Assembly: GCA_964504535.1 (NCBI GenBank)
Contig: CAZDED010000005.1
Coordinates: 9,411 to 73,410, forward strand
Direction of reading: 5' to 3'
DNA: 64,000 nt
From: an uncultured Gammaproteobacteria bacterium
GTDB taxonomy: Bacteria > Patescibacteriota > Microgenomatia > Levybacterales > GWA1-39-11
Part shown: in pieces, positions 6,973 to 61,306 of the stretch
Numbering within the stretch: position 1 is the stretch's first letter
How the letters are laid out: each line of letters opens with the position of its first letter
Notes under the pieces: model-generated
The model's database searches: none
The model's input: only the letters and a program-made list of their open reading frames with translations
Told to the model about the DNA's origin: nothing
Program-made: the position numbers and the translations under genes

Positions 6973-7037
6973 CGAAATTTTTTTGAGTGTGACGAGAACA
7001 AACTTGCTTTATTCTCGGCACAAAATCCGCTAAATTT

Positions 7038-7100
7038 GCCCTGATGGCTCAGTGATCGCTCAATTTGCTTTGCAAATTGTAGAGCGCGTTCTTGAGACGG
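7038..7100 (+). repeat. tRNA-Thr-like 5' fragment carrying a 25-nt hairpin (caatttgc-ttt-gcaaattg) inserted in the D loop
   Basis: gccctgatggctcagtg | atcgctcaatttgctttgcaaattg | tagagcgcgttcttg. This parallels the genuine tRNA-Thr 5' half 14 nt downstream. Confidence 0.5.
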
Positions 7101-7113
7101 AAAAACTTTTTAT

Positions 7114-7185
7114 GCCCGAGTGGCTCAGTGGTAGAGCGCATTCTTGGTAAGAATGAGGTCCCGGGTCCGATTCCCGGCTTGGGCT
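7114..7185 (+). tRNA. tRNA-Thr (anticodon GGT)
   Basis: Acceptor GCCCGAG/CTTGGGC (one G-U pair). D arm GCTC-AGTGGTA-GAGC. Anticodon stem CATTC/GAATG with loop TTGGTAA. T arm CCGGG-TCCGATT-CCCGG. Confidence 0.8.
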
Positions 7186-7261
7186 CAAAAGTTTTTCCTC
7201 GCAATTTGGCGAAGCCAAATCGAAAGAACAGAGTGGTGACGACCATGCGAAGTATGGCCAA

Positions 7262-7437
7262 GCTTGAAAGGCTTATTCCCGCTCGGGGCTCAGTGATCGC
7301 TCAATTTGCATTGCAAATCGTAGAGCATTCTTGGTAAGTAGTCATGGGGACGACCCTGCATAGCAGGGCAAGGTTCTGAACTTATTCAGGTTCTTAGCAG
7401 AGCCAAGCCTGAAAGGCTTATTCCCGGCCGAGGCTCA
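7262..7437 (+). repeat. degenerate tRNA-Thr-derived copy with the same 25-nt D-loop hairpin insertion plus an ~85-nt insertion after the anticodon loop; probably non-functional
   Basis: gctcggggctcagtg | atcgctcaatttgcattgcaaatcg | tagagcattcttggtaag ... ttcccggccgaggctca. Flanking sequence gccaagc(t/c)tgaaaggcttattcccg is duplicated at 7256 and 7403. Confidence 0.45.
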
Positions 7438-7503: not shown

Positions 7504-7809
7504 ATGTCAGAATTTATATCGGATGCTATTATTATGTTTCCTGACCGGAATTTGAGAGGTGGTCTTACTTTACATAGTGAACATGAGGATGGAAGACTAA
7601 TGAAAATGGAAGTCGATGAAAGTGTCGTTAATCGGCTTAAAAAGTTTGGATATAGTCAGGAAGCTGAAATTATGGATGTTTTGGTACCAATTAGCAATGT
7701 AGACGGAGAGGATATTATGCAAATGGATTCACCTGTATATCAGTGGGGGATGGAGATAGGGCAATTTATAGTAGCAAATGAGCCAAAAAATAAAATAAAT
7801 CTCTCCTAA
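7504..7809 (+). CDS. hypothetical protein (101 aa)
   Basis: ORF only; no recognisable motif. Confidence 0.35.
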   Translation: MSEFISDAIIMFPDRNLRGGLTLHSEHEDGRLMKMEVDESVVNRLKKFGYSQEAEIMDVLVPISNVDGEDIMQMDSPVYQWGMEIGQFIVANEPKNKINLS

Positions 7810-7882
7810 TACACCTTATTTACTTGCAATTCTAGGTAATAGCTAATATAATTTGTACTTACGTTAAAAACTTTCACATATT

Positions 7883-8062
7883 ATGGCAAAAAAATCTAAA
7901 GGAACACGTCTACAATTCGGTCTTCAATGCACCGTTTGTAAGAACGTTAACTACATAACACAACGCAACAAGCTCAATACGCCAGAAAAATTGGTGTTAA
8001 AGAAATTCTGCAATTTTTGTAAGAAAATTCAACCTCACAAGGAACGGGAAAAGTTGAAGTAG
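7883..8062 (+). CDS. rpmG: 50S ribosomal protein L33
   Basis: MAKKSKGTRLQFGLQCTVCKNVNYITQRNKLNTPEKLVLKKFCNFCKKIQPHKE carries the L33 CxxC...CxxC zinc ribbon. It is 59 aa, below the ORF-track cutoff. Confidence 0.85.
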   Translation: MAKKSKGTRLQFGLQCTVCKNVNYITQRNKLNTPEKLVLKKFCNFCKKIQPHKEREKLK

Positions 8063-11719: not shown

Positions 11720-12052
11720 ATTTGAGTATATTTATACCATCATAAGGTTGATTTGTCAATATATTATGCCACCATATAGTGTCAAAATATGGAAATAAAG
11801 CTGATATAAGGCTGTTTTTGTACAGGGATAGAAGATTTGAAAATATATATTATTGTCAAGAGTGTTGAACATTATATAACTATAAGATAAAATGTACCAC
11901 TGTTTTAAAGCAGTCAAGCAATAGCTGTTTGATGACCCTTGAAGCAGCGTACATTAACAATCTGCTGAAAAATACTCCTTTCGGAGACTTTTCCCATCAC
12001 AAATATGGTGGGCGAAATCTCCGACAAGGAGAATACAATGAGGAGGGGCGTT

Positions 12053-12820
12053 ATGTCCCAGGCATTTCCTATCCCTGCATCCATCCTTCAGCCCATTCCT
12101 GATCCCGTCCCGGAAGGCTACTTCCAGCGGTGGCAGGTCTACGTCGATGGGCAAGAGGCAACGCCTCAGCACATCACGATGGTGAATGTGGGGCAAGGAC
12201 TCCAGCTCGACTGGGGCTCTCACCCCGATGGCAAATGGTCGCAGTTCTGTTACCGCGAGAACCATGGAGGTGGCGTTGTCATCATTCCGCATGCAGTCAT
12301 GCCCGACGGGCGTGTCTACATCGGCGTCATCGACGCCAGGCGCCCTTTCCGCGATCCGCGGCCAGGGGCTGTCTTCATGGAGTTGCCGCGCGGTATGCGT
12401 GACAAGCTGGAATCGGCCACACAGGCCGCTCAGCGCGAAACGGAAGAAGAGACCGGCCATTCGGTTTCCGAAGGGTCGTATGTCGTGCTCGATGGTGATG
12501 GGGCCAACCCCAATTCCACCTTCTGGCTCACGTATGATCACAAGAACGAGACGCCGGATGGCGTCAGGTTCGTGACCGTCGAAGTCCCGGCCTCATCGCT
12601 CGTTCCCTCAAGGGACGGCGAAATGGTTTTGGACACCGCCGGACCCGTGGATTCCTTTGAAGGAATCGAGAAGTGTAGGTTCGTGCCCCTTACTATCCGT
12701 GAAACCGCGGGTGAAGGGGACATGTTCCTGCTCAGTGGAGCTTTCAAGCTCCAAGCGTACCTCATCGGACACTACGCCAACGTTTCCTTTCGGGATGGCG
12801 TGATGGTCGTGTCCAACTAG
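12053..12820 (+). CDS. Nudix hydrolase (ADP-ribose pyrophosphatase-like), encoded in GC-rich island A
   Basis: Nudix box GMRDKLESATQAAQRETEEETGH. High GC3 codon usage. AGGAGG sits 6 nt before the ATG at 12053; the ORF is open from 12005. Confidence 0.7.
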   Translation: MSQAFPIPASILQPIPDPVPEGYFQRWQVYVDGQEATPQHITMVNVGQGLQLDWGSHPDGKWSQFCYRENHGGGVVIIPHAVMPDGRVYIGVIDARRPFRDPRPGAVFMELPRGMRDKLESATQAAQRETEEETGHSVSEGSYVVLDGDGANPNSTFWLTYDHKNETPDGVRFVTVEVPASSLVPSRDGEMVLDTAGPVDSFEGIEKCRFVPLTIRETAGEGDMFLLSGAFKLQAYLIGHYANVSFRDGVMVVSN

Positions 12821-12838
12821 TCATTCAGCAGATCTCAG

Positions 12839-12860
12839 CCGGGTACCTCACGGTACCCGG
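12839..12860 (+). terminator. GC-rich hairpin ccgggtacc-tcac-ggtacccgg 18 nt after the island A stop codon (weak U-tract)
   Basis: Perfect 9-bp inverted repeat. Confidence 0.4.
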
Positions 12861-13106
12861 CACCATTTAAAACCTAATCAGCAGGGTTGGTAAATATTGG
12901 TACTACATCAATTCCAAGGATACAAGAAAGAGTTTGCCAGTTCCCATTCAAATATGTCTTATATATCGATATATCATGCAATAGTGGCTTATGTTTTTGA
13001 GTTAGTTGAAGCTTGCCGTGGACTAGTTGAAGGGTTAAAATAAGGAGTCTTAGGGTAGTAGCTTAGTGCGAATGAAATGAGCACCAAACTTACTTTTTGA
13101 CAATAT

Positions 13107-13180
13107 AGGGTCGTAGTTTACCGGTAGAATAGGGGTCTCCAAAACCCTTGAAGATGGTTCGATTCCATCCGGCCCTGCCA
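13107..13180 (+). tRNA. tRNA-Trp (anticodon CCA), CCA encoded
   Basis: Acceptor AGGGTCG/CGGCCCT. Anticodon stem GGGGT/ACCCT with loop CTCCAAA. T arm GATGG-TTCGATT-CCATC. D stem carries two G-U pairs. Confidence 0.7.
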
Positions 13181-13286
13181 GGCACCATTCGGAGCCTGGC
13201 TTCGCAAGGAGCCAGCGTAGATGGTGACGCAGTCAGGTATCGTATGGTACCTGACAACCTTAGTATCCTCCATGTAAACTTAACAA

Positions 13287-13547
13287 GTGAAATTATTTTA
13301 CGTCTATATTCTTCGCAATAGAGATAAATATTTTACCTACATCGGTTATTCTGAAGACTTAAAATTCCGTTTGAAAACTCACAATTCTGGACAAGTTATT
13401 TCAACTAAGCATTACGTTCCACTTGAACTAATCCATTACGAAGCATATAAAAATATGAAGGATGCAAAGAGAAGAGAGCAATATCTTAAATCCAATAAAG
13501 GCAAAACTACCTTAATAACAATGCTTAAAGAATACTTTTCAGAATAA
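13287..13547 (+). CDS. GIY-YIG nuclease family protein (UPF0213/YhbQ-like)
   Basis: FYVYILRN...YIGYSEDLKFRLKTHN matches the GIY-YIG core. Confidence 0.75.
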   Translation: MKLFYVYILRNRDKYFTYIGYSEDLKFRLKTHNSGQVISTKHYVPLELIHYEAYKNMKDAKRREQYLKSNKGKTTLITMLKEYFSE

Positions 13548-15178: not shown

Positions 15179-15378
15179 AAAAAGATAATAAGTTCAATAT
15201 TATTTACTCAAGCAATGTACGGTAGGCTTATACGAAGCTAATTTTTATCTTATAGTTTTGATATTCGTTTCAATTTCTGTTAAAATATATCTATGCAAAC
15301 ATGATAAATCTAAGCTCAAAAATGCTGCTTAGAGGTGTCAAATTTGCCATTTTTAGCACTTTTACATTGCGGAAATTA

Positions 15379-15426
15379 GTGGTTACCACCTTACACATAA
15401 GATGTTGTGTTTGAGGTGGTAACCAT
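15379..15426. repeat. long hairpin at the left edge of GC-rich island B (stem ggttaccacc/ggtggtaacc, 24-nt loop with an internal acaca/tgtgt repeat)
   Basis: Perfect 10-bp inverted repeat read directly. Confidence 0.5.
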
Positions 15427-15447
15427 AGAAAGAGGAGGTCACACCAA

Positions 15448-15833
15448 ATTGTAGGGGCAACCCTGAATCCTCAGCGTGTCGAGGAGATTTTTCTTGACTG
15501 CCTCTTCAAGCGTGGAGAGGACACGACCAGCCACATCAAGGCCGAGGGTATCACCTCGGTGGTCGGGTTTCATCCCAACCGCCTCGAAACCCATAAGGCA
15601 GAGATCAAGGCTCTCTTGGACGATTGCCTGATGAGTTCAAGCTGACAGGCGGCGGCGGAATGTCATTCCTGAAAGCCTGCAACGACAAGCACGGCAACCA
15701 ATGGACCGGTCTCCATTAGCACATGGAGCAACTGTTCCAACTCGGAATTGCCATCGGCAAGGTGCAAACCCTTCTCCCTCGGGAGATGTGGTCGGCACTA
15801 CCGGGTGCAGTGCCGTACTACGCAATCATGTAG
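15448..15833 (+). pseudogene. disrupted GC-rich ORF: three collinear segments (…HKAEIKALLDDC / …LTGGGGMSFLKACNDKHGNQWTGLH* / HMEQLFQLGIAIGKVQTLLPREMWSALPGAVPYYAIM*) separated by one frameshift (~15600-15645) and one in-frame TAG (15717)
   Basis: Protein-like, high-GC3 translation continues across the frameshift and stop. AGGAGG at 15433 has no ATG downstream. Confidence 0.5.
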
Positions 15834-15888
15834 TCAGCCCAACCCTCACATCGTCAAGACAACGGTTCACAACCAGAGAAAGGAAGCC

Positions 15889-16254
15889 ATGTCACTTACG
15901 ATCACCGCTGATTTCCTCCAACGATTTGTAGGAGGACAGTTGGAGTATGAGAACACAATGGGGCATTATCGGTTTCGCGGCGAGATCGAACGTGTCTGGA
16001 TAGAGGGCAGCAAAAATGCAACAATGTACGTCCTCTTGAAGTGGCTTGCCGAGATGGGTGAGGACTCCAGATGGCACGGTGCCGTTGACACCCTCGATTA
16101 CTCGGTCGGCCTCGCCGAAACGAGTTTCAGTGAGGCTGACGACAGCACTGTCCATTATGTCTCAACGCTCATTCAAGAAAAGGGGACCTTTTTCCCTCCA
16201 GAAGGAAGTAGACTGGATCCGTTGGAGGTGGAAGGGCTCCAGCTTCCCTCCTAA
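15889..16254 (+). CDS. hypothetical protein (121 aa) of GC-rich island B
   Basis: ATG preceded by AGGAAG. High GC3. The longer ORF from 15748 runs through the pseudogene tail. Confidence 0.55.
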   Translation: MSLTITADFLQRFVGGQLEYENTMGHYRFRGEIERVWIEGSKNATMYVLLKWLAEMGEDSRWHGAVDTLDYSVGLAETSFSEADDSTVHYVSTLIQEKGTFFPPEGSRLDPLEVEGLQLPS

Positions 16255-16293
16255 CAAGTTCCGCATCACGAATCACTCGGGCAAAAGTGCACT

Positions 16294-16327
16294 GGGCCGC
16301 GACACGTTCGCGGCCCTTTTGCTTTTG
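16294..16327 (+). terminator. Rho-independent terminator gggccgcg-acacgtt-cgcggccc followed by ttttgcttttg
   Basis: Perfect 8-bp GC stem plus a U-tract. Confidence 0.7.
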
Positions 16328-18980: not shown

Positions 18981-19532
18981 TTAACCAAAAAGTTTTTTTT
19001 TAAATTCCGCAAATTTTTGAGGGTCATGTCTGATTCTAAAAATGTCATCTGAGATCATTTTTCCCCAAAAATCAGGACCGTCTACTTTTTCCAAAAACTC
19101 ATCAAAGGATACTTCAACAACCTCAATTTTTTCTCCACCATCAAGGGACGCCTCTTGTACCTTTTTTGCGTTTCTGGCAATAAAAAGATAGATGTCCCAT
19201 TCAATTTTTCCGCCCGCATGGTAAGTTTTAAGTAGTTCCCAGTCATCAGATTCAAGTCCAGCCTCCTCAAGAAGTTCACGTTTTGCAACGGACAAAGGTT
19301 CCTCCCCTTGTTCTTGTCTACCTCCTAAAAAGGTATAACAAAGGGATTTTGATGGTTGTTCTTCGTGGGATAAATATAGTTTTTCACCATTTACCGGGAT
19401 GATCTGGATTGTTGCAGAGCGTTTGAGAGCCTCAAAGGTTTTAGTTGTACCATCATACATTGTCTGTTCCCATTGATAGACATCAAATATAGTACCTGTA
19501 AAGACTTTTTTTGCCTGTGGTGGGATTCTCAC
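18981..19532 (-). CDS. Nudix hydrolase
   Basis: Nudix box GGRQEQGEEPLSVAKRELLEEAGL. Confidence 0.7.
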   Translation of the reverse strand: MRIPPQAKKVFTGTIFDVYQWEQTMYDGTTKTFEALKRSATIQIIPVNGEKLYLSHEEQPSKSLCYTFLGGRQEQGEEPLSVAKRELLEEAGLESDDWELLKTYHAGGKIEWDIYLFIARNAKKVQEASLDGGEKIEVVEVSFDEFLEKVDGPDFWGKMISDDIFRIRHDPQKFAEFKKKLFG

Positions 19533-23085: not shown

Positions 23086-23117
23086 AAAAAGACCCCGAGC
23101 ATGCTCGGGGTCTTTGG
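23086..23117. terminator. bidirectional terminator: perfect 22-nt palindrome gaccccgagcatgctcggggtc flanked by AAAAA and TTTGG
   Basis: Sits between the convergent + gene (ends 23011) and the - strand island C operon (ends 23126). Confidence 0.7.
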
Positions 23118-23125
23118 AATTGAGA

Positions 23126-23425
23126 TTACTGGGACGAGTATGTCCCCTTGTCGTCAGCAAGCGTGACGCACGCCGTCTGTTTGATCCACTCACGGTCGTG
23201 ATGGGCGTACTGTTGGCATACCATTGTTGTGAGAATGGAACGATCACCTGGTACCTTGAAGTACATTCGGGCACGTTCTTCAAAGCTAGCAGTGACGCTT
23301 GCGATGATCTGCTCTCTCGTGACACCCCCAGGAAGGGGGTCAACCAGCGTGTAGTTGAGCGTGAGCATTCCAAGGTTCGTTGGCACGAGAACTTGGAGAA
23401 CTTCGCTTGGTGAGGTAGTGCTCAT
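23126..23425 (-). CDS. hypothetical protein (99 aa), second gene of GC-rich island C operon
   Basis: High GC3 on the minus strand. It starts 17 nt after the upstream stop. Confidence 0.5.
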   Translation of the reverse strand: MSTTSPSEVLQVLVPTNLGMLTLNYTLVDPLPGGVTREQIIASVTASFEERARMYFKVPGDRSILTTMVCQQYAHHDREWIKQTACVTLADDKGTYSSQ

Positions 23426-23442
23426 GACGTTACCATGAGAGG

Positions 23443-23796
23443 CTACCCTGCGGTTTCTTGAGGCATCGCCTCATTGGTCATCAGGTGTTCCTGGATGAGC
23501 TTCGCAAGTTCACGAAGGCCTTCTTCGGTCCGGGCAACAACTTCCACGCCAAGCCAGTTCAAGGACTTTGGGGTCCGTGCCAGCTTGGAGCGCGCCGCCA
23601 GGGGGAGGGCTCCTACGAGAGCCCAGGCTTCCTCCGAACGGAGGAGCTTGTGGCCAGTATGGGTCATGAAAGCGAATGCTTTCCAGTCCCGGTCGAAAGA
23701 TGAGGTGACGACGATGTGAGCAAGTCCAACGTCCTTCAGTTCCTTGGCGGCGAATTGCTTCCACCGCGTGTCTTGAAGGTCAATCCTTCTGATCAA
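23443..23796 (-). CDS. hypothetical protein (117 aa), first gene of GC-rich island C operon
   Basis: GC3 is about 70% on the minus strand. The overlapping + strand ORFs lack this bias. Confidence 0.5.
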   Translation of the reverse strand: MIRRIDLQDTRWKQFAAKELKDVGLAHIVVTSSFDRDWKAFAFMTHTGHKLLRSEEAWALVGALPLAARSKLARTPKSLNWLGVEVVARTEEGLRELAKLIQEHLMTNEAMPQETAG

Positions 23797-24118
23797 GCTA
23801 TGTCTCCGGTGTGAAGTGTCTGTTCCATTGCCGTTGGGGTACGAAACAGCTTCTCAAAGACATGTAAATCTTCAAAAAGCTATTTCGTACGGTAAGAAAT
23901 GAAGTAATCTCAATTGTTAATGTACATCATGAAATCCACGTAAGGCGCGCATGTGCCTCAAAGGATTTATGAGGAAAACTATTATACCTGCAATAGCCTT
24001 GATTGTGCAATTGCTAAGCATTGTGCTACTTGACTGTGAGTTTTGAGATACCGTACACTGAAATCAGTTTATAGTTGTAAAACTAGTAGCTGAGGACTAA
24101 TAACTCGTCTCTGCCCAT

Positions 24119-29296: not shown

Positions 29297-29322
29297 CCCC
29301 GGGCGCACTACAGCGCCCGAGG
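29297..29322. terminator. GC hairpin cccgggcgc-actaca-gcgcccg(a)gg between convergent gdhA and the island D gene; U-tract present on the minus-strand side
   Basis: Read directly; 7 bp plus an extension. Confidence 0.55.
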
Positions 29323-29345
29323 ACAGAACCAGATTTAGCTGGTGG

Positions 29346-29600
29346 CTAAAGCCGAGTGGCGAGGCACGTTGTCGTACGTTGAACGCCACCGATCGTCTGG
29401 ATGCTGCAGGTGACGATTTGGCCGACGCTGTCCAGGTCGTTGTGCGTGATCTTCACGATCACATCGTACGGACCGGTCACGGTGTTGATCTCGGAAAGCT
29501 GTCCGCTGTGGCCGTTTTGGGCAATCTCGGAAAGGCGCGTAGCAACGGCCTTTGACTTGCCGACTTCCGTCTCGATCAGAACGTAAGCGTTAACCGCCAT
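29346..29600 (-). CDS. stand-alone Lrp/AsnC C-terminal ligand-binding (RAM) domain protein, GC-rich island D
   Basis: VNAYVLIETEVGKSKAVATRLSEI...TGPYDVIVKITHNDLDSVGQIV is the canonical AsnC_trans_reg fold sequence. GGAGG lies 8 nt before the ATG. Confidence 0.7.
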   Translation of the reverse strand: MAVNAYVLIETEVGKSKAVATRLSEIAQNGHSGQLSEINTVTGPYDVIVKITHNDLDSVGQIVTCSIQTIGGVQRTTTCLATRL

Positions 29601-29637
29601 GACTCAAGCCTCCTGTCCCGCGAAGCGGGAACGACTA

Positions 29638-29657
29638 TGCACGGAATTATTCCGTGC
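29638..29657. promoter_or_regulatory. perfect 19-bp palindrome gcacggaat-t-attccgtgc in the 5' region of the island D gene (candidate operator); a second palindrome ccgcgcactgcgcgg lies at 29730..29744
   Basis: Read directly; positioned 40-60 nt upstream of the minus-strand start. Confidence 0.35.
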
Positions 29658-29964
29658 GGTCTTTGTGGATTGTGTTTTATGCACCTCCAGCTTGATCTGT
29701 TGTTAATGCGAACAAAGACGTAAACTCTCCCGCGCACTGCGCGGAAGGCCACATCTCAATTCACTGATGGTAATTATAGGTCTATAGTATATAAAATGCA
29801 ATGATCTGTGATTAAAATTGCGTTCTTAAAAAAATAGAAAAAAAGAAACTATCCCTAAAATTAGGAAGGGATTTTTGAAAAAAACGCGAGTGTTCCTTCG
29901 GAACCAAAGGCTTCATCATCGGGGTGAGCAAAAACGGCACCAACGAACAGTTTCATGTTTTTAT

Positions 29965-35823: not shown

Positions 35824-36335
35824 AGGGTGGTGCCGGAAAGCAGGACTATCACCCCATGATGCCCTAGGGCATCAAGTGAGTCCCACGATGGGGACATCAA
35901 CTTTCCGGCGTTTAAAACACACTGCGTTATTGGGATCTTAGCGCCTCTGCGCCGTGGCTGTCGTCTTCAGCGGCTGATCGGGAACCCCGTCACCGTTGTA
36001 AGGCCTGAAGCCATTCGACCGCTGCTGCTTGCGATCGGCAGCTGCCTGTTCGCGGCTTGTTTCCGTTTCTTCTCCCGGTCCGAGTGATTCACGAAGAGAC
36101 CCTCATCGACCGACCGTTCTGGGCCCTCCGATGAGAGACGGTGGCGGTGGGAACGTATGTGCTAACGTTCCCATGCATCCGGTCTTGTAGGACCTTCCGC
36201 TTGTTGCGCCATGCCTTGAAGGAGTTGCTACTCCTCCACGTATCTTTCGCTTTGCTCAAGTACCTTTACCTCTCCTGGAGTGGATTGATCCCGTTTTACG
36301 CAGTGTAGTTTTTCAATGATCTTAAAAGCAGAACC
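35824..36335. other. GC-rich non-coding island E: no ORF of 60 aa or more in any frame, dense hairpins (candidate structured ncRNA or decayed foreign DNA)
   Basis: An 82-nt nested structure lies at 35825..35906 (gccggaaag...ctttccggc enclosing gatgcc-ctag-ggcatc and ccccat/atgggg). Further perfect stems: gggaacgt/acgttccc, ctcatcg/cgatgag, ggcagctgcc. Confidence 0.3.
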
Positions 36336-36430
36336 GCTCTTACGCTAAGTGCACTAGCACTAGCATAAGTTAAGAATCCGCTCTCGTGATGCAGATATTA
36401 TACACCTGCATAGTATAAATACTAGATTTC

Positions 36431-46122: not shown

Positions 46123-46605
46123 TTGGGATACCTGTCAAGTTCTGCCTTATTATGTATAATTAATTACATGACCCAAGAAATATTGGTAAGAGCACTTATC
46201 ATCAGAGACAGAAAGATTTTGGTGTGTCAAACCGTTGGGAAAGATTATTTTTTTCTGCCCGGCGGACACGTGGAATTTGGAGAGAGTATGCAAGATGCCT
46301 TGCACCGAGAGCTTATTGAGGAATTGAACGCACGCGTAATTGCTTCGTCATACATTGGTAGTGTTGAAAATATTTTTGAGCAGAATGAAGTAAAAAAGCA
46401 CGAACTCAGTTTTGTTTTTCATGTTGATATCGATTTGCGCGACGTTGTTTCAAAAGAGGAGCACATTTCCTTTTATTGGCTGACTTTTGAAGAATTTATT
46501 GATGCTAAAGTCATGCCACCTGCTATGAAAGACGCAATTATTGAATGGACCGCTGAGAAGGAAACATTTTTTATAGAAGAGAAAAGTTCAGGCAATAGTA
46601 ACTAG
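46123..46605 (+). CDS. Nudix hydrolase
   Basis: Nudix box GGHVEFGESMQDALHRELIEELNA. Confidence 0.75.
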   Translation: MGYLSSSALLCIINYMTQEILVRALIIRDRKILVCQTVGKDYFFLPGGHVEFGESMQDALHRELIEELNARVIASSYIGSVENIFEQNEVKKHELSFVFHVDIDLRDVVSKEEHISFYWLTFEEFIDAKVMPPAMKDAIIEWTAEKETFFIEEKSSGNSN

Positions 46606-48587: not shown

Positions 48588-48767
48588 TTTTTCCCATTTT
48601 GTGCTATAATAACTTGTTTTTGCCCACCTTTTGGCGTGTTGCATGTCAAAATCAACGGGCTTAGCACGTTAACAAGTTGCTTGATATTTTTTAAGGTTGC
48701 GGCTTTCTGCTAATCTATGGTTGGTAGGAAGCCGTAACCTATATTCTGCGGCAAGGAGACAACAGGG

Positions 48768-49556
48768 ATGACCTACCTTGAGGCTATCACCACGACACTC
48801 AAAAGCGCAACATCTCGCTGGGCAGCGGTAGCGCCCGCTTTCCTCAAGCTGCCCGAAGGGCAGGTCGTCGTCGTCCACGTGCTCATCCGCGGCGAACAGT
48901 TCGTTGGACGAGTATCAATGCCGGCGGAGATCACCAGCCAGGCGCGTGCCATCCAGTCGCTTGGCATTCAGACCCTTGGGTTCTACCGCTTCGATGCGGG
49001 CCTCTGGGAGATGGCTTGGAAATTGCTCCAAGCCATCGACGAGTCCACGAAGAACGCACCCAAGCTGTTCGAAGAAGAGCTTCTCAAGAGGCTGCTTTCA
49101 GAGGGCGTAGTCAGGGATGACCTGATCACGCCGGTTCCCGACGATATGGAGGAGTTCTTCCTTCATCGCGTCGGGACGGAGCAGGCCATCGTTATGGCCT
49201 CCGCCGAGGAGGACATCTTCAACGTTCCCGAGAATCCGCTCGGCCGCCTCATCGCGCCCAAGGGGACAGTGGCCATGTATTGGCCAGCCATCGAGAAGGA
49301 GCGAGATGACGTGCGCAAAGCGCGCGAACAGGACCCCATCCTCGGCACCCCGTTTGTAGTAATCCATCACCACTCCTCGCAAGAGGAGACGGACGAGCGG
49401 ACTAGGAGCCGTTTCCGCCGCAACCGCGTCACCACCGAGACCGAGCCGGTTCCCGGAATGGGAGCATCGGAGAGCAAGGATCGTGGTGAGCCTTCCTACG
49501 TTCCGGCCGGTCTCGCAAGGACCCGCCGCGGTCAAGCCGGTCAAGACCTCGGCTAA
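48768..49556 (+). CDS. hypothetical protein (262 aa), GC-rich island F
   Basis: AAGGAG before the ATG. High GC3. Followed by a strong terminator. Confidence 0.6.
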   Translation: MTYLEAITTTLKSATSRWAAVAPAFLKLPEGQVVVVHVLIRGEQFVGRVSMPAEITSQARAIQSLGIQTLGFYRFDAGLWEMAWKLLQAIDESTKNAPKLFEEELLKRLLSEGVVRDDLITPVPDDMEEFFLHRVGTEQAIVMASAEEDIFNVPENPLGRLIAPKGTVAMYWPAIEKERDDVRKAREQDPILGTPFVVIHHHSSQEETDERTRSRFRRNRVTTETEPVPGMGASESKDRGEPSYVPAGLARTRRGQAGQDLG

Positions 49557-49585
49557 CAAGCCGACGCACATCAAGCAACTCCCGT

Positions 49586-49620
49586 CCCCCGATTGCAGAA
49601 ACGCAACCGGGGGACTTTTC
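49586..49620 (+). terminator. Rho-independent terminator cccccgattgc-agaaac-gcaaccggggg + acttttcc
   Basis: 11-bp stem with one mismatch, plus a U-tract. Confidence 0.7.
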
Positions 49621-49632
49621 CTACGCTAAAGC

Positions 49633-50469
49633 TTGAGCTTTGAACGTATTTTTGGTACAGTGGGTATCAAATATATGCAAAGCATTTCCCCAAAATTTCA
49701 ACGTAAAAGAATTATCATAACAATTACGGTTCTTATCATTCTTTCAATTCTTATTTTTATGAACAGACTTTCCGGTCCTGTTTTGTTTTTGGAAGGTTTA
49801 GTTCAGTCTATCTTTGAGGTTCCAAAGAGTATCATGTATTCACTGGGAAAAAAAGAGAATGATCAAAAGATACTACAGCTTACTAAAAAAAATCGCGAAT
49901 TAGAGCAAAAATTAGTCGAGTATCAAATAATTAGAAACGATAACAATGCGCTTCGTAGTCAGTTCAATATAAGTTCGGATACCTCTCAAAGTCTTGTTGC
50001 CACAAAAATAATTGGATTTCAGGGAGAGAGCAAACTTCCTTCCGAATTTATTATCAATGCTGGAAAAAAGCATGGTATTAAAAAAGGAATGACGGTAATT
50101 TTTGAAAAATATCTCATTGGGAAAGTAGAAACGGTTGGTCAGAATTATTCGGTGGTCACAACACCTGTGAGTCCCAAGTTTAGAGTTTTGGCAAAACTTC
50201 CCGAAACAAACGCTAATGGACTCTTGATTGGAAGAAGTGATTTTATGTTATTTGATGGAGTTGTTATAACAGACACTCTGAAAAATAATGGAATTATCGT
50301 AACAAAAGGAGAGGTCGGGCGCGATGGGATAGGTGTTGTCCCGGATATGATTATCGGAAAAATAACTTCTATCTCAAAAAACGAAACCTCGCCATTTCAA
50401 AGTGCTGAGATCATGCCAATTATTGATTATTCAAAACTCGTGGATGTATTTGTTATCTCTCAAATGTGA
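49633..50469 (+). CDS. mreC: rod shape-determining protein MreC
   Basis: N-terminal TM helix and coiled coil (NRELEQKLVEYQ). The C-terminal beta domain follows. Confidence 0.7.
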   Translation: MSFERIFGTVGIKYMQSISPKFQRKRIIITITVLIILSILIFMNRLSGPVLFLEGLVQSIFEVPKSIMYSLGKKENDQKILQLTKKNRELEQKLVEYQIIRNDNNALRSQFNISSDTSQSLVATKIIGFQGESKLPSEFIINAGKKHGIKKGMTVIFEKYLIGKVETVGQNYSVVTTPVSPKFRVLAKLPETNANGLLIGRSDFMLFDGVVITDTLKNNGIIVTKGEVGRDGIGVVPDMIIGKITSISKNETSPFQSAEIMPIIDYSKLVDVFVISQM

Positions 50470-50888: not shown

Positions 50889-52660
50889 AGAGAAGACACA
50901 GACCTATAGGCCATGCATTTTCAGATCATGTGTTTGAAGAACATTTGAAAAGAAAACGTGGATTTTCAGGTTCAAGACTTGAAGGGTTTGGTAGATTTAT
51001 TCCTCTTCTTATTCTTTCTCTTGTTTTTGCACTGCTTGCAATGCGTCTTTTTACATTACAGGTAGTGCGAGCTTCATATTACTCAAGATTATCTGATGCA
51101 AATAGAATACGTACGGAGTTAATAACGGCACCCCGTGGCATAATTTTTGACAGGAATGGGGAGGCATTGGTGCGCAACATTCCAGCATTTGGGACTATAA
51201 AAAATAATAAAGTAGAGTGGTTGGATAGGGACGTTGCTTTGAAGATGGCATCCAATGGAACAAGCGTTCTTGCAATTGTAAAAAGAGATTATTTATATAA
51301 AGACATTTTCTCACACGTCATAGGATATGTAGGACAAGTTAATAGTGATGAATTATTACTTCCTGATTTTAGTGATTATGGAATATCAGATTTTACGGGG
51401 AGGATGGGTCTTGAGGAACAGTATGAAAAATTTCTTCATGGGCAAAATGGAAAACAATTATATGAAGTGAATGCAAAAGGTGAGCGTATACGGCTTTTGG
51501 GTGAAGAGGAGGCAAGACAAGGAGCGGTTCTCAAAACCACTCTTGATGTCGGTCTTCAGAAGGCTGCAGCAAAAGCGATGGAAAAGATAGATAAGGGCGC
51601 TGTTGTAGTTACCGACCCGCGAGATGGATCTGTGATGGCTCTTTATTCAAAACCATCTTTTGATCCTAATTTATTTACAAGAGAACCATCATACAAACCT
51701 GAAGGAGCATATCAGAAGAAAGAAGATATTTTGCTTGATGATGAAAAATTTCCTCTTCTTGACCGAGTTATTGCGGGAGTATATCCACCCGGTTCCACTT
51801 TCAAAATTGTTACTTCCCTTGCTGCACTTTCATCAAATGCCATAAAGCCGGAGACAGAATTTGAAGACACCGGAATACTATCTATTGGAGGAAGTAATTT
51901 CGGTACGTGGAATTACTTGGAAACAGGAAGAAAAGAAGGATTTATGAATGTTGAGCGTGCGCTTGTCCGATCAAATGACATCTTCTTTTACGATGCAGCC
52001 ATGAAAACGGGGATTGATACATTGTCATCATGGTCAAAAAAATTAGGTCTTGGGGAAAAAACAGGTATTGATATACCGGGAGAAGTAAAAGGCACGGTTC
52101 CAAATCCTGCTTGGAAAAAAGAAGAGATTGGGGAGCAGTGGTATCTTGGTGACACAATCAACATGAGTATCGGACAAGGCTTTTTGGAAACGACACCAAT
52201 GCAGGTTAACCTATACACACAATTGGTTGCTAATGGAGGTGAGTTGATAAAACCACACTTGTTGTTTGGGGATGTAAGAATTATTAAAAAAGATTTTATA
52301 GCGAAAGAAAATATTGATGTTGTAAAAAATGGCATGAGGGGTGCTTGTGAGCCAGGTGGTACAGGATACCCACTATTTGGATTTAAAGTAAAAAATGAGC
52401 GATTGAAAATTGATGACCTTGATTATGTAAGAGATGCATCAGCAGGAGCTAATTTTGTACATGTCACAATGGGTTGTAAGACCGGAACTTCTGAGGCACA
52501 TGGAGACAATGCGAAGTCTCATGCATGGTTTACCGTATTTGCTCCTTTCTATAATCCGGAAATTGCAATAACGGTTCTTGCAGAAAATGCAGGACAGGGT
52601 AGTGATATTGCAGCCCCCGTTGCTCGCGATATCTTAAAGGAATATTTTGAGAAAAAATAG
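50885..52660 (+). CDS. mrdA: penicillin-binding protein 2 (class B transpeptidase)
   Basis: STFK, SxN (SNDIFF) and KTGT boxes. Confidence 0.85.
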   Translation: MKRRHRPIGHAFSDHVFEEHLKRKRGFSGSRLEGFGRFIPLLILSLVFALLAMRLFTLQVVRASYYSRLSDANRIRTELITAPRGIIFDRNGEALVRNIPAFGTIKNNKVEWLDRDVALKMASNGTSVLAIVKRDYLYKDIFSHVIGYVGQVNSDELLLPDFSDYGISDFTGRMGLEEQYEKFLHGQNGKQLYEVNAKGERIRLLGEEEARQGAVLKTTLDVGLQKAAAKAMEKIDKGAVVVTDPRDGSVMALYSKPSFDPNLFTREPSYKPEGAYQKKEDILLDDEKFPLLDRVIAGVYPPGSTFKIVTSLAALSSNAIKPETEFEDTGILSIGGSNFGTWNYLETGRKEGFMNVERALVRSNDIFFYDAAMKTGIDTLSSWSKKLGLGEKTGIDIPGEVKGTVPNPAWKKEEIGEQWYLGDTINMSIGQGFLETTPMQVNLYTQLVANGGELIKPHLLFGDVRIIKKDFIAKENIDVVKNGMRGACEPGGTGYPLFGFKVKNERLKIDDLDYVRDASAGANFVHVTMGCKTGTSEAHGDNAKSHAWFTVFAPFYNPEIAITVLAENAGQGSDIAAPVARDILKEYFEKK

Positions 52661-57889: not shown

Positions 57890-57987
57890 TTTCTTGATTT
57901 TGAGCTAGATATCTGTTAAACTACTACTTAGATCCAAAGACAGCTGGCGCAAAAGAAGTCCAGCCGAGGAGAACATAAGTTTTCAAA

Positions 57988-58012
57988 CGTCGATGGATCG
58001 GCGTTTTTTTTT
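57988..58012 (+). promoter_or_regulatory. rplJ leader hairpin + U9 (attenuator/terminator-like) immediately upstream of rplJ
   Basis: gtcgat-gg-atcggc followed by ttttttttt, 9 nt before the rplJ start. Confidence 0.45.
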
Positions 58013-58020
58013 GGTCAAAT

Positions 58021-60685: not shown

Positions 60686-61306
60686 ATGGTAGAGAGAAAA
60701 TTAATTCCATACGATCCAAATCGTTTACCACCAGAAAAAGCTGATTTACAGATTGATGGTGTAGATTCTGACTTTTCTGGGATAACTGCAAGGAGTGGTT
60801 TTGCTGGAGTTGAGCGTATGATGGTAGAGCGTGATGGGGCAATTCTATTTGACACGATAAAAATTAATCCTTCACCTGGAGTGTTCGTTTTGCCAGTAAG
60901 GATAAATCATCAAAAGCTAGCGGAATACTTGTTGGTTAACGAATGGAAAGATAAGCTCGGAAAAAGGATTACCCAAATCCCCCAGGGAAGAGTTAACAAT
61001 GGAGAGACCGAAACAGAAGCTGCTAAGCGCGAAGTTAGAGAAGAGACCGGCCATGAACCATTCGGGCTTGTATTAGTTGGCAGGCAAGTTTTCGATTCTG
61101 CATACATGTCCAAAGAGCAGCCTTTTTATTTGGCACTGGTTCCTTATGGACAAGAAAGACAGGATTTAGAACTTGAAGGTGGGGAAGACATAGAAAAGCT
61201 TTCTTGGATGAGGCCTGAGGAAGTTAGAAAACTTCCAATAATTGATGGTAAAACAACAATTGGTATAGCCCTTGCTGAAAAAGTTCTAAATCCAAATCTC
61301 CTCTAA
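60686..61306 (+). CDS. Nudix hydrolase
   Basis: Nudix box GRVNNGETETEAAKREVREETGH. Confidence 0.7.
   Translation: MVERKLIPYDPNRLPPEKADLQIDGVDSDFSGITARSGFAGVERMMVERDGAILFDTIKINPSPGVFVLPVRINHQKLAEYLLVNEWKDKLGKRITQIPQGRVNNGETETEAAKREVREETGHEPFGLVLVGRQVFDSAYMSKEQPFYLALVPYGQERQDLELEGGEDIEKLSWMRPEEVRKLPIIDGKTTIGIALAEKVLNPNLL

Follow-up and report, generated by a model that had tools for sequence, protein, structure and literature searches.

A GC-rich Nudix gene in a Levyibacteriota genome and a candidate family of transcription units closed by a long-range 5'-3' RNA helix

Background

Pairing between the 5' and 3' untranslated regions (UTRs) of one messenger is a known kind of bacterial RNA interaction; in Bacillus subtilis hbs, a 14-bp helix between the two UTRs modulates cleavage by RNase Y (Braun, Durand and Condon 2017, PMC5737220). 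We describe here a unit that can be compared with it, a GC-rich gene for a Nudix hydrolase (island A) bracketed by a perfect 10-bp inverted repeat in a 64-kb stretch of contig CAZDED010000005.1 (the window; island labels and coordinates refer to this whole stretch unless one of the related loci, L001 to L174, is named). The host belongs to Candidatus Levyibacteriota, within the candidate phyla radiation, and the unit is chromosomal; the window is ~39% GC and carries ordinary chromosomal genes, including those for arginyl-tRNA synthetase, phosphoglycerate kinase, aldolase, glutamate dehydrogenase, ribosomal protein L10, a penicillin-binding protein and tRNAs. By computation we find that a 5'-3' helix is conserved and covaries, that an unpaired motif is shared and that conserved mRNA structure is in excess. 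With moderate confidence we read island A as a self-contained transcription unit whose mRNA is closed by a long-range RNA helix between the two arms of the repeat; we call this helix the clamp. The plan of island A is repeated in the five other GC-rich islands that the window holds (B to F) and in related genomes, where a further unit, G, was found; we refer to A to G as cassettes.

The likeness to hbs lies in a helix of ~14 bp that runs from the 5' UTR to a 3'-UTR segment just upstream of the terminator, beside or over a single-stranded RNase Y site in the leader, with stability linked to translation. The difference is that hbs is one housekeeping gene whose composition is normal, whereas the cassettes form a family in which the motif is shared, the arms are specific to each gene, the bodies are GC-rich and structure continues through the coding sequence. 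In Staphylococcus aureus icaR (PMC3868564) a 3'-UTR segment likewise pairs with its own 5' UTR and controls the fate of the mRNA, but there it hides the Shine-Dalgarno sequence and gives rise to an RNase III site, whereas the arm of cassette A lies ~70 nt upstream and the helices are 10-13 bp long. Type I toxin mRNAs (hok, with its fbi/tac pairing, and Helicobacter pylori aapA1, PMC6733600) are locked into a compact and stable form by a covarying 5'-3' closing helix, and opening or 3' trimming alters their activity. Those messengers are 200-400 nt long, encode small toxic peptides and are accompanied by an antisense RNA, whereas the cassettes span 0.5-1 kb, encode ordinary-looking proteins and show no antisense gene.

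Phage morons are supernumerary genes, each with a promoter and a terminator of its own, whose composition sets them apart from their neighbours. The cassettes resemble them in being autonomous from promoter to terminator, in a GC content unlike that of the flanks, in their position between conserved genes and, for G, in variable presence; they differ in being chromosomal, in their vertical inheritance across deep divergences and in having an RNA clamp and a motif as defining features. A 14-mer that includes the motif was matched in IMG/VR, and of the first 105 usable sites none had the features of a cassette. RNA phages and other RNA viruses, MS2 for example, have ordered RNA structure at the scale of the genome, with long-distance interactions. 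The parallel there lies in coding RNA with pervasive structure beyond what composition would give and in functional long-range helices, and the difference in that the cassettes are DNA-encoded cellular transcripts with sigma-70-like promoters and no replicase. Full-text literature searches found no prior description of such units, and UTR pairing, in the form proposed here, would characterize a family of several genes, defined by its motif, whose GC-rich mRNAs are folded globally.

Results

Conservation and covariation of the clamp

A sequence-only reading of this DNA had reported the inverted repeat with exact coordinates (Table 1) and had offered two interpretations: the ends of a tiny mobile cassette or miniature inverted-repeat transposable element (MITE), or a long-range stem that loops out the gene. 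The second is the one that agrees with our results, with pairing kept in all five ortholog lineages and two compensatory pairs, and the stem forms the outermost helix of both minimum-energy and consensus folds. To judge from the positions of the promoter and of the 3' GC hairpin, with transcription predicted to start near 11900, both arms fall inside a single transcript, and they would thus be complementary 5'-UTR and 3'-UTR segments of one RNA, maintained by covariation. The -10 region (ACTATAAGATAAAAT) is kept in L001 and L004, with equivalent TAGAAT boxes in L005 and L007. The GC-rich conserved block runs past both arms, taking in the motif and leader on the 5' side and the hairpin on the 3' side. 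This hairpin follows the 3' arm after a spacer of 4 nt; the earlier reading had recognized it but had drawn it from 12839 to 12860, one nucleotide short at each end. Its structure is kept, and its sequence is not, in L001, L004 and L008. Canonical terminators occupy the corresponding position in the sibling cassettes, with clearer T-runs in C, D and F.

The length of the A clamp varies among lineages: 11 bp in L001, 10 bp shifted outward by one in L004, 12 bp in L005/L008 (ATCTGTTGAAAG / CTTTCAACAGAT) and 7 bp plus 4 bp in L007 (CTCTGCT...AAAG / CTTT.CAGCAGAG). Within the 7-bp core the sole two substitutions are both compensated, C-G to U-A in L005/L008 and A-U to C-G in L007. Family F provides covariation independent of A, one pair having changed from G-C to A-U (GTTACTTGATAT / ATATCAAGTAAC) in L174, its most divergent member (43% identity).

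The 10-bp repeat is significant because it is conserved, covarying and recurrent; by itself it is within chance. Twelve inverted pairs of 9 nt or longer, one of them a perfect 11-mer, occur in the surrounding 1.7 kb, and for a random anchor the probability of a complement within 2.5 kb is 0.031 for at least 10 nt, 0.0087 for at least 11 nt and 0.0007 for at least 13 nt. When 5' and 3' zones of different cassettes are mismatched, the mean complement is 5.9 nt, and one of 59 host genes reaches 10 nt, with a low-complexity match. Two of the 105 chance copies of the 14-mer from IMG/VR have a complement of at least 10 nt, and a GC-rich body or terminator is present in none; in JGI metagenomes, none of 37 chance copies of an F 19-mer is a cassette. 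One JGI locus with an 11-nt complement (L147) was rejected as unrelated AT-rich DNA.

Folding of transcripts and coding sequences

In minimum-energy folds of whole transcripts the clamp forms at a pair probability of at least 0.95 in six of the seven cassettes (A, C, D, E, F and G), over spans of 380-920 nt, and the folds share one order: leader hairpin, unpaired motif, clamp, body, clamp, short spacer, terminator hairpin. In families A and F alike, the clamp is the outermost helix of the RNAalifold consensus. The first leader hairpin of A is found at the same position in the folds of C, D, E, F and G, and the consensus fold of the A leader contains pairs with changes on both sides; its second hairpin (helices 2 and 3 of the consensus folds) shows G-U and compensatory changes.

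Structure in excess of that imposed by the protein and its codons extends through the coding sequence. Against synonymous-codon shuffles, the folding z-score is -4.3 for A, -5.5 for F, -3.1 for C1 and -2.4 to -6.8 for the orthologs of A and F, vs -0.8 to +0.6 for six AT-rich host genes and -0.1 for a remote AT-rich Nudix gene. In each of the four cases compared (4/4), the score was lower for the sense than for the antisense strand. The five-lineage consensus fold of A pairs 84.8% of cells vs 40-46% in slid controls and contains 55 pairs changed on both sides vs 9-18, together with many G-C/G-U alternations, a contrast that is inflated because the folds were derived from the same alignments in which the pairs were counted. 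None of 500 shuffles of the A alignment reaches the observed values for pairing and two-sided change.

A shared motif and sibling cassettes

The Nudix open reading frame (ORF) had been taken for the only GC-rich one here; the five further islands of the window show that it is not. Their common plan comprises a sigma-70-like promoter, a leader hairpin, a single-stranded motif (GYWCATTAAMAA), a gene-specific 5' arm, a GC-rich body, a complementary 3' arm near the stop codon and a terminator hairpin (Table 1), with the promoter 47-65 nt upstream of the motif. The consensus of the motif family is G-Y-W-C-A-T-T-A-A-M-A-A. Its core, CRTTAACAA, occurs six times in the window vs 1.6 expected, and four of the six copies lie in sense orientation at the 5' edge of GC-rich islands. 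The motif is unpaired in all folds and conserved in the orthologs of A, F and G, and no consistent intramolecular partner for it was found across the cassettes. A promoter function was considered and rejected, the motif being unflagged by the promoter scan. Rfam gave no match on any cassette leader, either at the gathering threshold or with the limit relaxed to E = 0.5.

Perfect complements start at the last A of CRTTAACAA in three cassettes (10 nt in A, 11 nt in F and 13 nt in C). The remaining clamps are imperfect in D (13/16), composed of 9 bp, a bulge and 5 bp in E, weak (8 bp) in B and 9 bp long in G (L013/L014). In every unit the 3' arm lies 0-7 nt upstream of the GC hairpin; its distance to the stop codon is 0-15 nt in A, C, D and F and 33 nt in G. 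Only strict cassette criteria were applied, because a loose detector (up to two motif mismatches, G-U pairs allowed) gave three matches on the reversed window.

The bodies of the cassettes differ. The 84-aa ORF of D encodes an Lrp/AsnC ligand-binding domain, and the 262-aa ORF of F belongs to no known family. F has nine homologs, with genes of 54-64% GC in flanks of 36-43%, and its leader and arms are more conserved than its protein. Cassette E (35832-36385) has the full architecture with only ORFs of 41-56 aa, and may be a non-coding member. Cassette G (L013 3879-5000, L014 4100-5340) holds small ORFs, one resembling a zinc ribbon. It sits between the F terminator and the MreC promoter in L013 and L014 only, flanked by CATTTCCTAC and CATTTCCAAC, and is absent from the window (49616-49640) and from L009. 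The inserted unit begins ~130 nt upstream of its 5' arm and carries an AT-rich promoter outside the arms.

Some leaders match the arms of other cassettes. The D leader (29750-29765, minus strand) contains GAATTGAGAT, a 10-nt complement of the C 3' arm (23118-23130, minus strand), and the E leader (36340-36350, minus strand) contains AGTGCACTT, a 9-nt complement of the B 3' arm (16283-16290, plus strand). Three such cross-cassette matches of at least 9 nt were seen vs ~0.65 expected over 42 mismatched comparisons; they could be cross-talk between cassettes, or chance. Separately, the word AATAGCTKTT recurs in the leaders of A (11921-11932), C (23867-23880, minus strand), G (L013 3950-3960) and the L007 ortholog (~1271-1285), at a position relative to the motif that varies among the four.

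Table 1. Coordinates of the Nudix unit, the sibling cassettes and related genes in the window
Feature	Coordinates	Strand	Sequence or description	Basis
A, sigma-70-like promoter	11865..11893	+	TTGAAC-17-TAAAAT	promoter scan
A, leader hairpin	11901..11948	+	~48 nt, ending just 5' of the motif	whole-transcript minimum-energy fold
A, unpaired motif	11949..11960	+	GTACATTAACAA	recurrence, folds, ortholog conservation
A, clamp 5' arm	11960..11969	+	ATCTGCTGAA; 10 nt; pairs with the 3' arm at probability 0.96, span 864 nt	fold
A, second leader hairpin	11975..12031	+	long, imperfect, CTCCTTTCGGAGAC...TCTCCGACAAGGAG; between clamp and ribosome-binding site	minimum-energy fold
A, Shine-Dalgarno sequence	12040..12046	+	GAGGAGG, 6 nt 5' of the ATG at 12053	sequence; kept in orthologs
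A, Nudix hydrolase ORF	12053..12820	+	255 aa; GC 0.59; GC at third codon positions (GC3) 0.70	Pfam NUDIX
A, clamp 3' arm	12824..12833	+	TTCAGCAGAT; 3 nt after the stop codon TAG (12818-12820)	sequence, fold
A, GC hairpin in terminator position	12838..12861	+	GCCGGGTACC-tcac-GGTACCCGGC; 10-bp stem, 4-nt loop, then ACCATTTAAAA	
tRNA-Trp	13107-13180		downstream of island A, points away from the gene	
Cassette B	15356..16316	+		
B, clamp 5' arm	15356-15363	+	GCACTTTT	
B, clamp 3' arm	16283-16290	+	AAAAGTGC	
B, terminator	16294-16316	+		
AT-rich Nudix gene	18981-19532	-		
Cassette C	23091..23925	-	two small ORFs	
C, motif	23914-23925	-		
C, clamp 5' arm	23903-23915	-	AATTGAGATTACT; 13 nt	
C, clamp 3' arm	23118-23130	-	overlaps the stop codon; 13/13 pairs, probability 0.95	
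C, terminator	23091-23112	-		
Cassette D	29297..29710	-		
D, motif	29700-29710	-		
D, clamp 5' arm	29684-29699	-	imperfect	
D, clamp 3' arm	29330-29345	-	abuts the stop codon	
D, terminator	29297-29322	-		
Cassette E	35832..36321	-		
E, motif variant	36310-36321	-	GATCATTGAAAA	
E, clamp 5' arm	36298-36313	-		
E, clamp 3' arm	35914-35927	-	pair probability 0.99	
E, compound terminator	35832-35909	-		
AT-rich Nudix gene	46123-46605	+		
Cassette F	48664..49615	+		
F, motif	48664-48675	+	GCACGTTAACAA	
F, clamp 5' arm	48675-48685	+	AGTTGCTTGAT; 11 nt	
F, ORF	48768-49556	+		
F, clamp 3' arm	49570-49580	+		
F, terminator	49584-49615	+		
AT-rich Nudix gene	60686-61306	+		

The Nudix protein and its relatives

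The Nudix box that had been called canonical is near-canonical (GMRDKLESATQAAQRETEEETGH; G-MRDKL-E-SATQAAQ-RE-T-E-EE-T-G-H at residues 114-136), its residues are largely invariant over the five lineages, and the Pfam NUDIX profile PF00293 scores 29.6 bits vs a cut-off of 21.1 (E = 8e-07). Judged by the box GX5EX7REUXEEXGU together with the profile, the protein is a member of the Nudix hydrolase superfamily. Sequence matches in the PDB are to NudF/NUDT5 (E ~1e-4) and fold matches to NUDT5 and ADP-ribose pyrophosphatases (ADPRases; E ~1e-6), in which an alpha/beta/alpha Nudix fold is preceded by an N-terminal beta domain, with TM-scores of only 0.4-0.5 for a model of pLDDT 61.7 whose N-terminal 70 residues are of low confidence. 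The protein is thus predicted to be a divergent Nudix hydrolase that most nearly resembles the ADP-ribose/ADP-sugar pyrophosphatases NudF, NUDT5 and Mt-ADPRase. Both the A and the F proteins are clearly under purifying selection, with many invariant columns.

The family is tiny. Word-indexed searches of 5.8 billion proteins found only five lineages; identity to the copy in the window is 87, 55, 50 and 47%. A protein scan of JGI metagenomes gave no match. A full HMMER search retrieved 183 distant representatives (E up to 1e-10), of which those bearing names are Patescibacteria; such a search had been proposed as a way to name a donor, and neither it nor the word-indexed searches yielded a homolog from a GC-rich organism. 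One distant-relative locus that was looked up has 39.5% GC, the same as its flanks, and lies in an ordinary operon, with neither motif nor clamp. The three AT-rich Nudix genes that we confirm elsewhere in the window (four had been counted) are listed in Table 1.

Composition, locus and vertical history

Island A stands out at GC 0.59 and GC3 0.70 vs a window GC of 0.39 and a mean GC3 of 0.30 for 25 host genes. The gene had been seen as a redundant foreign paralog, a view to be given up if it proved vertically conserved with AT-rich orthologs. Vertically conserved it is, and its orthologs are all GC-rich (54-61%) in contigs of ~38% GC. Four lineages share the order methyltransferase, TrmB on the opposite strand, Nudix; in the fifth (L005/L008) the unit lies upstream of RNase HII, where the window has no cassette. 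Identities to the window in L001, L004 and L007 are 90, 70 and 57% for TrmB vs 87, 55 and 47% for the Nudix protein, and those in L009, L013 and L014 are 95, 71 and 72% for the flanking DUF975 host protein vs 70, 58 and 59% for the F protein. As measured by these sequence identities, the A gene diverges in step with its AT-rich neighbours. The cassette proteins diverge faster than those of flanking host genes, and yet conservation at four-fold sites is somewhat higher in the cassettes.

The tRNA-Trp gene downstream of the island had been suggested as an integration hotspot. It faces away from the gene, and the linkage is inconsistent: tRNA-Trp is absent downstream in L001/L002, is not linked to the gene in L004 and lies 2.3 kb upstream in L008. 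A tRNA-targeted island was accordingly rejected, the 3' end of the tRNA gene pointing away, the linkage being variable and no integrase being present among the ORFs scanned. Around this tRNA gene we also note two GC hairpins directly on its 3' side (13178-13262); a 12-mer, CC[C/A]GGCACCATT, found right after the hairpin of island A (12856-12867) and again right after tRNA-Trp (13178-13189); a stand-alone GIY-YIG nuclease ORF of 86 aa farther downstream (13287-13547); and, in L008, a GC-rich, hairpin-dense non-coding stretch downstream of tRNA-Trp (7680-7960).

Discussion

Because the arms lie within the inferred transcript, the motif is found on the 5' side only and the arm sequences differ between cassettes, we favour base pairing in the mRNA over a protein-binding site; arms that differ from one cassette to the next leave no shared site for a protein to bind. 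A closed and heavily paired mRNA of this kind would be shielded from single-strand-specific RNases, and the exposed motif beside the clamp may serve as the recognition, entry or cleavage site of a putative trans-acting factor, by analogy with RNase Y on B. subtilis hbs. Access of that factor to the motif would then depend on the adjacent clamp. The 3' arm lies within the footprint of a ribosome at the stop codon, so that each termination event would cover the arm and open the clamp, and processing or decay may thereby be tied to translation. The GC-richness of the island would be mainly a footprint of selection for folded RNA rather than a sign of recent import. Genes for rRNA and tRNA in AT-rich genomes are GC-rich as structured RNAs.

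Several points weigh against this interpretation. We infer where the transcript starts, where it ends and that its arms pair in vivo, and the hairpin of A is not called in a strict terminator scan because its tail (ACCATTTAAAA) has a weak T-run that misses the criterion. Covariation in the clamp alone is modest, 20 of 500 shuffles matching it, because each family has only five lineages, and the RNAalifold covariation terms are slightly unfavourable (+5.9 and +5.6). No clamp of any cassette contains a G-U pair, and therefore the clamp alone cannot separate RNA pairing from a symmetry at the DNA level. The contrast with slid controls is inflated, as noted above, and the coding sequence of D (z = +0.7) has no excess structure. 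Cassette B (15297-16316) has a degenerate motif, an 8-bp clamp at a pair probability of only 0.15 and frames broken by stops and frameshifts, and gives the impression of a family member in decay. With ~70 nt between the 5' arm and the Shine-Dalgarno sequence, direct control of translation is not evident. Finally, the placement of units varies: A occurs at two loci (TrmB or RNase HII), F in two contexts and G in only some lineages, so that some mobility exists. Comparison of these sequences indicates that relocation of units, from promoter to terminator, happens.

That mobility, and a perfect inverted repeat around a compositionally odd gene, are what could be said for a MITE-like miniature cassette whose 10-mers are terminal inverted repeats acted on by a transposase in trans, and which landed near tRNA-Trp. 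We find it scarcely credible. The arm 10-mer, for which a search for further copies had been suggested, is found only once as an exact match in the window; the arms are not bordered by direct repeats that would mark a target-site duplication; the conserved GC-rich block exceeds both arms, as does the G unit with its AT-rich promoter well outside them; the motif is one-sided; each cassette has arms of its own; and no transposase occurs in any unit or in the scanned cargo and neighbours. In addition, the tRNA linkage is not conserved, and the gene co-diverges with its neighbours. That co-divergence, with distant relatives that appear to be ordinary AT-rich Patescibacteria Nudix genes, is why we do not regard island A as a recent import, a MITE or a tRNA-targeted island. 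The same facts bear on the suggestion of a gene recently acquired from a GC-rich donor and flanked by a chance repeat, which the composition of the island and a 10-mer that alone is within chance would allow. Orthologs that are all GC-rich at 47-87% identity, four of five lineages keeping the TrmB-adjacent locus and tracking neighbour divergence, arms that are conserved and covarying, and six islands with one design make this highly improbable, and "recent" and "chance" are both refuted; an ancient import of island A is compatible with the data.

Another alternative is an inversion switch, in which a site-specific recombinase flips the ORF between a fixed promoter and terminator with the arms as crossover sites, while gene conversion keeps the arms complementary. 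The geometry fits, with the promoter outside, the ORF inside and arms of 10-13 bp, and both concerted change of the arms and the lack of G-U pairs would follow. Yet all independent assemblies show the sense orientation only (A in the window and L001-L008, F at seven loci, G at two), the differing arms offer no shared recombinase site, the motif is again one-sided, no recombinase adjoins the units, and the excess coding-sequence structure, the sense-over-antisense bias and the conserved internal helices go unexplained; we judge a switch very unlikely. Paired operators, by which a TrmB-family regulator or other factor would bind the 10-mers and loop the gene, draw on the TrmB-family gene that adjoins the Nudix unit in four of five lineages. 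L005/L008, however, keep the arms without TrmB, the other cassettes have different arms and no TrmB neighbour, compensated substitutions would need a parallel change in the protein, and where the 3' arm sits with respect to stop codon and terminator speaks for a role in the transcript, which leaves this idea with very little probability. The folded, closed RNA might itself be the functional product, for which coding is just one part of its role, and be packaged, exported or reverse-transcribed, with the motif as a handle for the machinery concerned: conserved structure spans the transcript in a manner closer to RNA-virus genomes than to ordinary mRNAs, E has no convincing ORF, and units relocate with no visible DNA machinery. 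We think this unlikely, given that among the ~35 window ORFs scanned against Pfam no reverse transcriptase, capsid or export gene was seen in or beside the units, that the A and F proteins are under clear purifying selection, and that the relocated G unit carries DNA upstream of its promoter, unlike an RNA intermediate.

Other classes of element were tried and rejected. Integron gene cassettes are promoterless ORFs, each followed by an attC site (R''-L''...L'-R'), in an array next to an integrase; the units described here carry promoters of their own and are dispersed, no integrase occurs among the scanned ORFs, and the motif (CATTAACAA) is found 5' of the ORF and mismatches the attC core GTTRRRY. 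Readings as a retron, an integron, IS200/IS605 or a hammerhead-type element fail for want of a reverse transcriptase, an attC site or a conserved catalytic core, and with arms that vary between cassettes.

Returning to the clamped-mRNA interpretation, we suggest more tentatively, as a proposition that could well prove wrong, that the GC-rich islands of these AT-rich genomes are, instead of imported DNA, a class of closed, "superfolded" mRNA units, each with a gene-specific clamp and a shared motif read by a lineage-specific factor, and that they form either a phylum-level post-transcriptional system or an RNA-level vehicle by which a set of accessory genes is kept in long-lived, RNase-resistant transcripts. 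Because GC-richness persists to ~50% protein identity along with excess conserved mRNA structure, selection would act on the RNA itself, and the default reading of compositional islands as horizontal transfer would be overturned. If this is borne out, bacteria would have their first family of 5'-3' clamped mRNAs that spans several genes and is defined by a motif, and that in a phylum about whose RNA biology almost nothing is known. It would open the questions of how ultra-small cells with few ribosomes stabilise their messages and of coding sequences shaped genome-wide by structure, in the manner of designed "superfolder" mRNAs. The motif-plus-clamp rule is simple enough for scanning all Patescibacteria genomes.

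Other features of the window

Three minor observations lie apart from the cassettes. The tRNA-Thr(GGT) gene at 7114-7186 is flanked by partial tRNA-like copies at 7040-7100 and 7285-7437 (region 7034-7437), with insertions in the D-arm and after the anticodon arm; these could be disrupted duplicates or intron-bearing tRNA genes. ARAGORN calls a 93-nt tRNA-Phe at 50899-50991, within the ORF of a penicillin-binding protein, which is unsupported by Rfam and probably a false positive. Directly upstream of the L10 gene (58021-58539), positions 57916-58019 give a sub-threshold match to the L10 leader (RF00557, 36.7 bits vs a gathering threshold of 44) that is probably a genuine, divergent leader.

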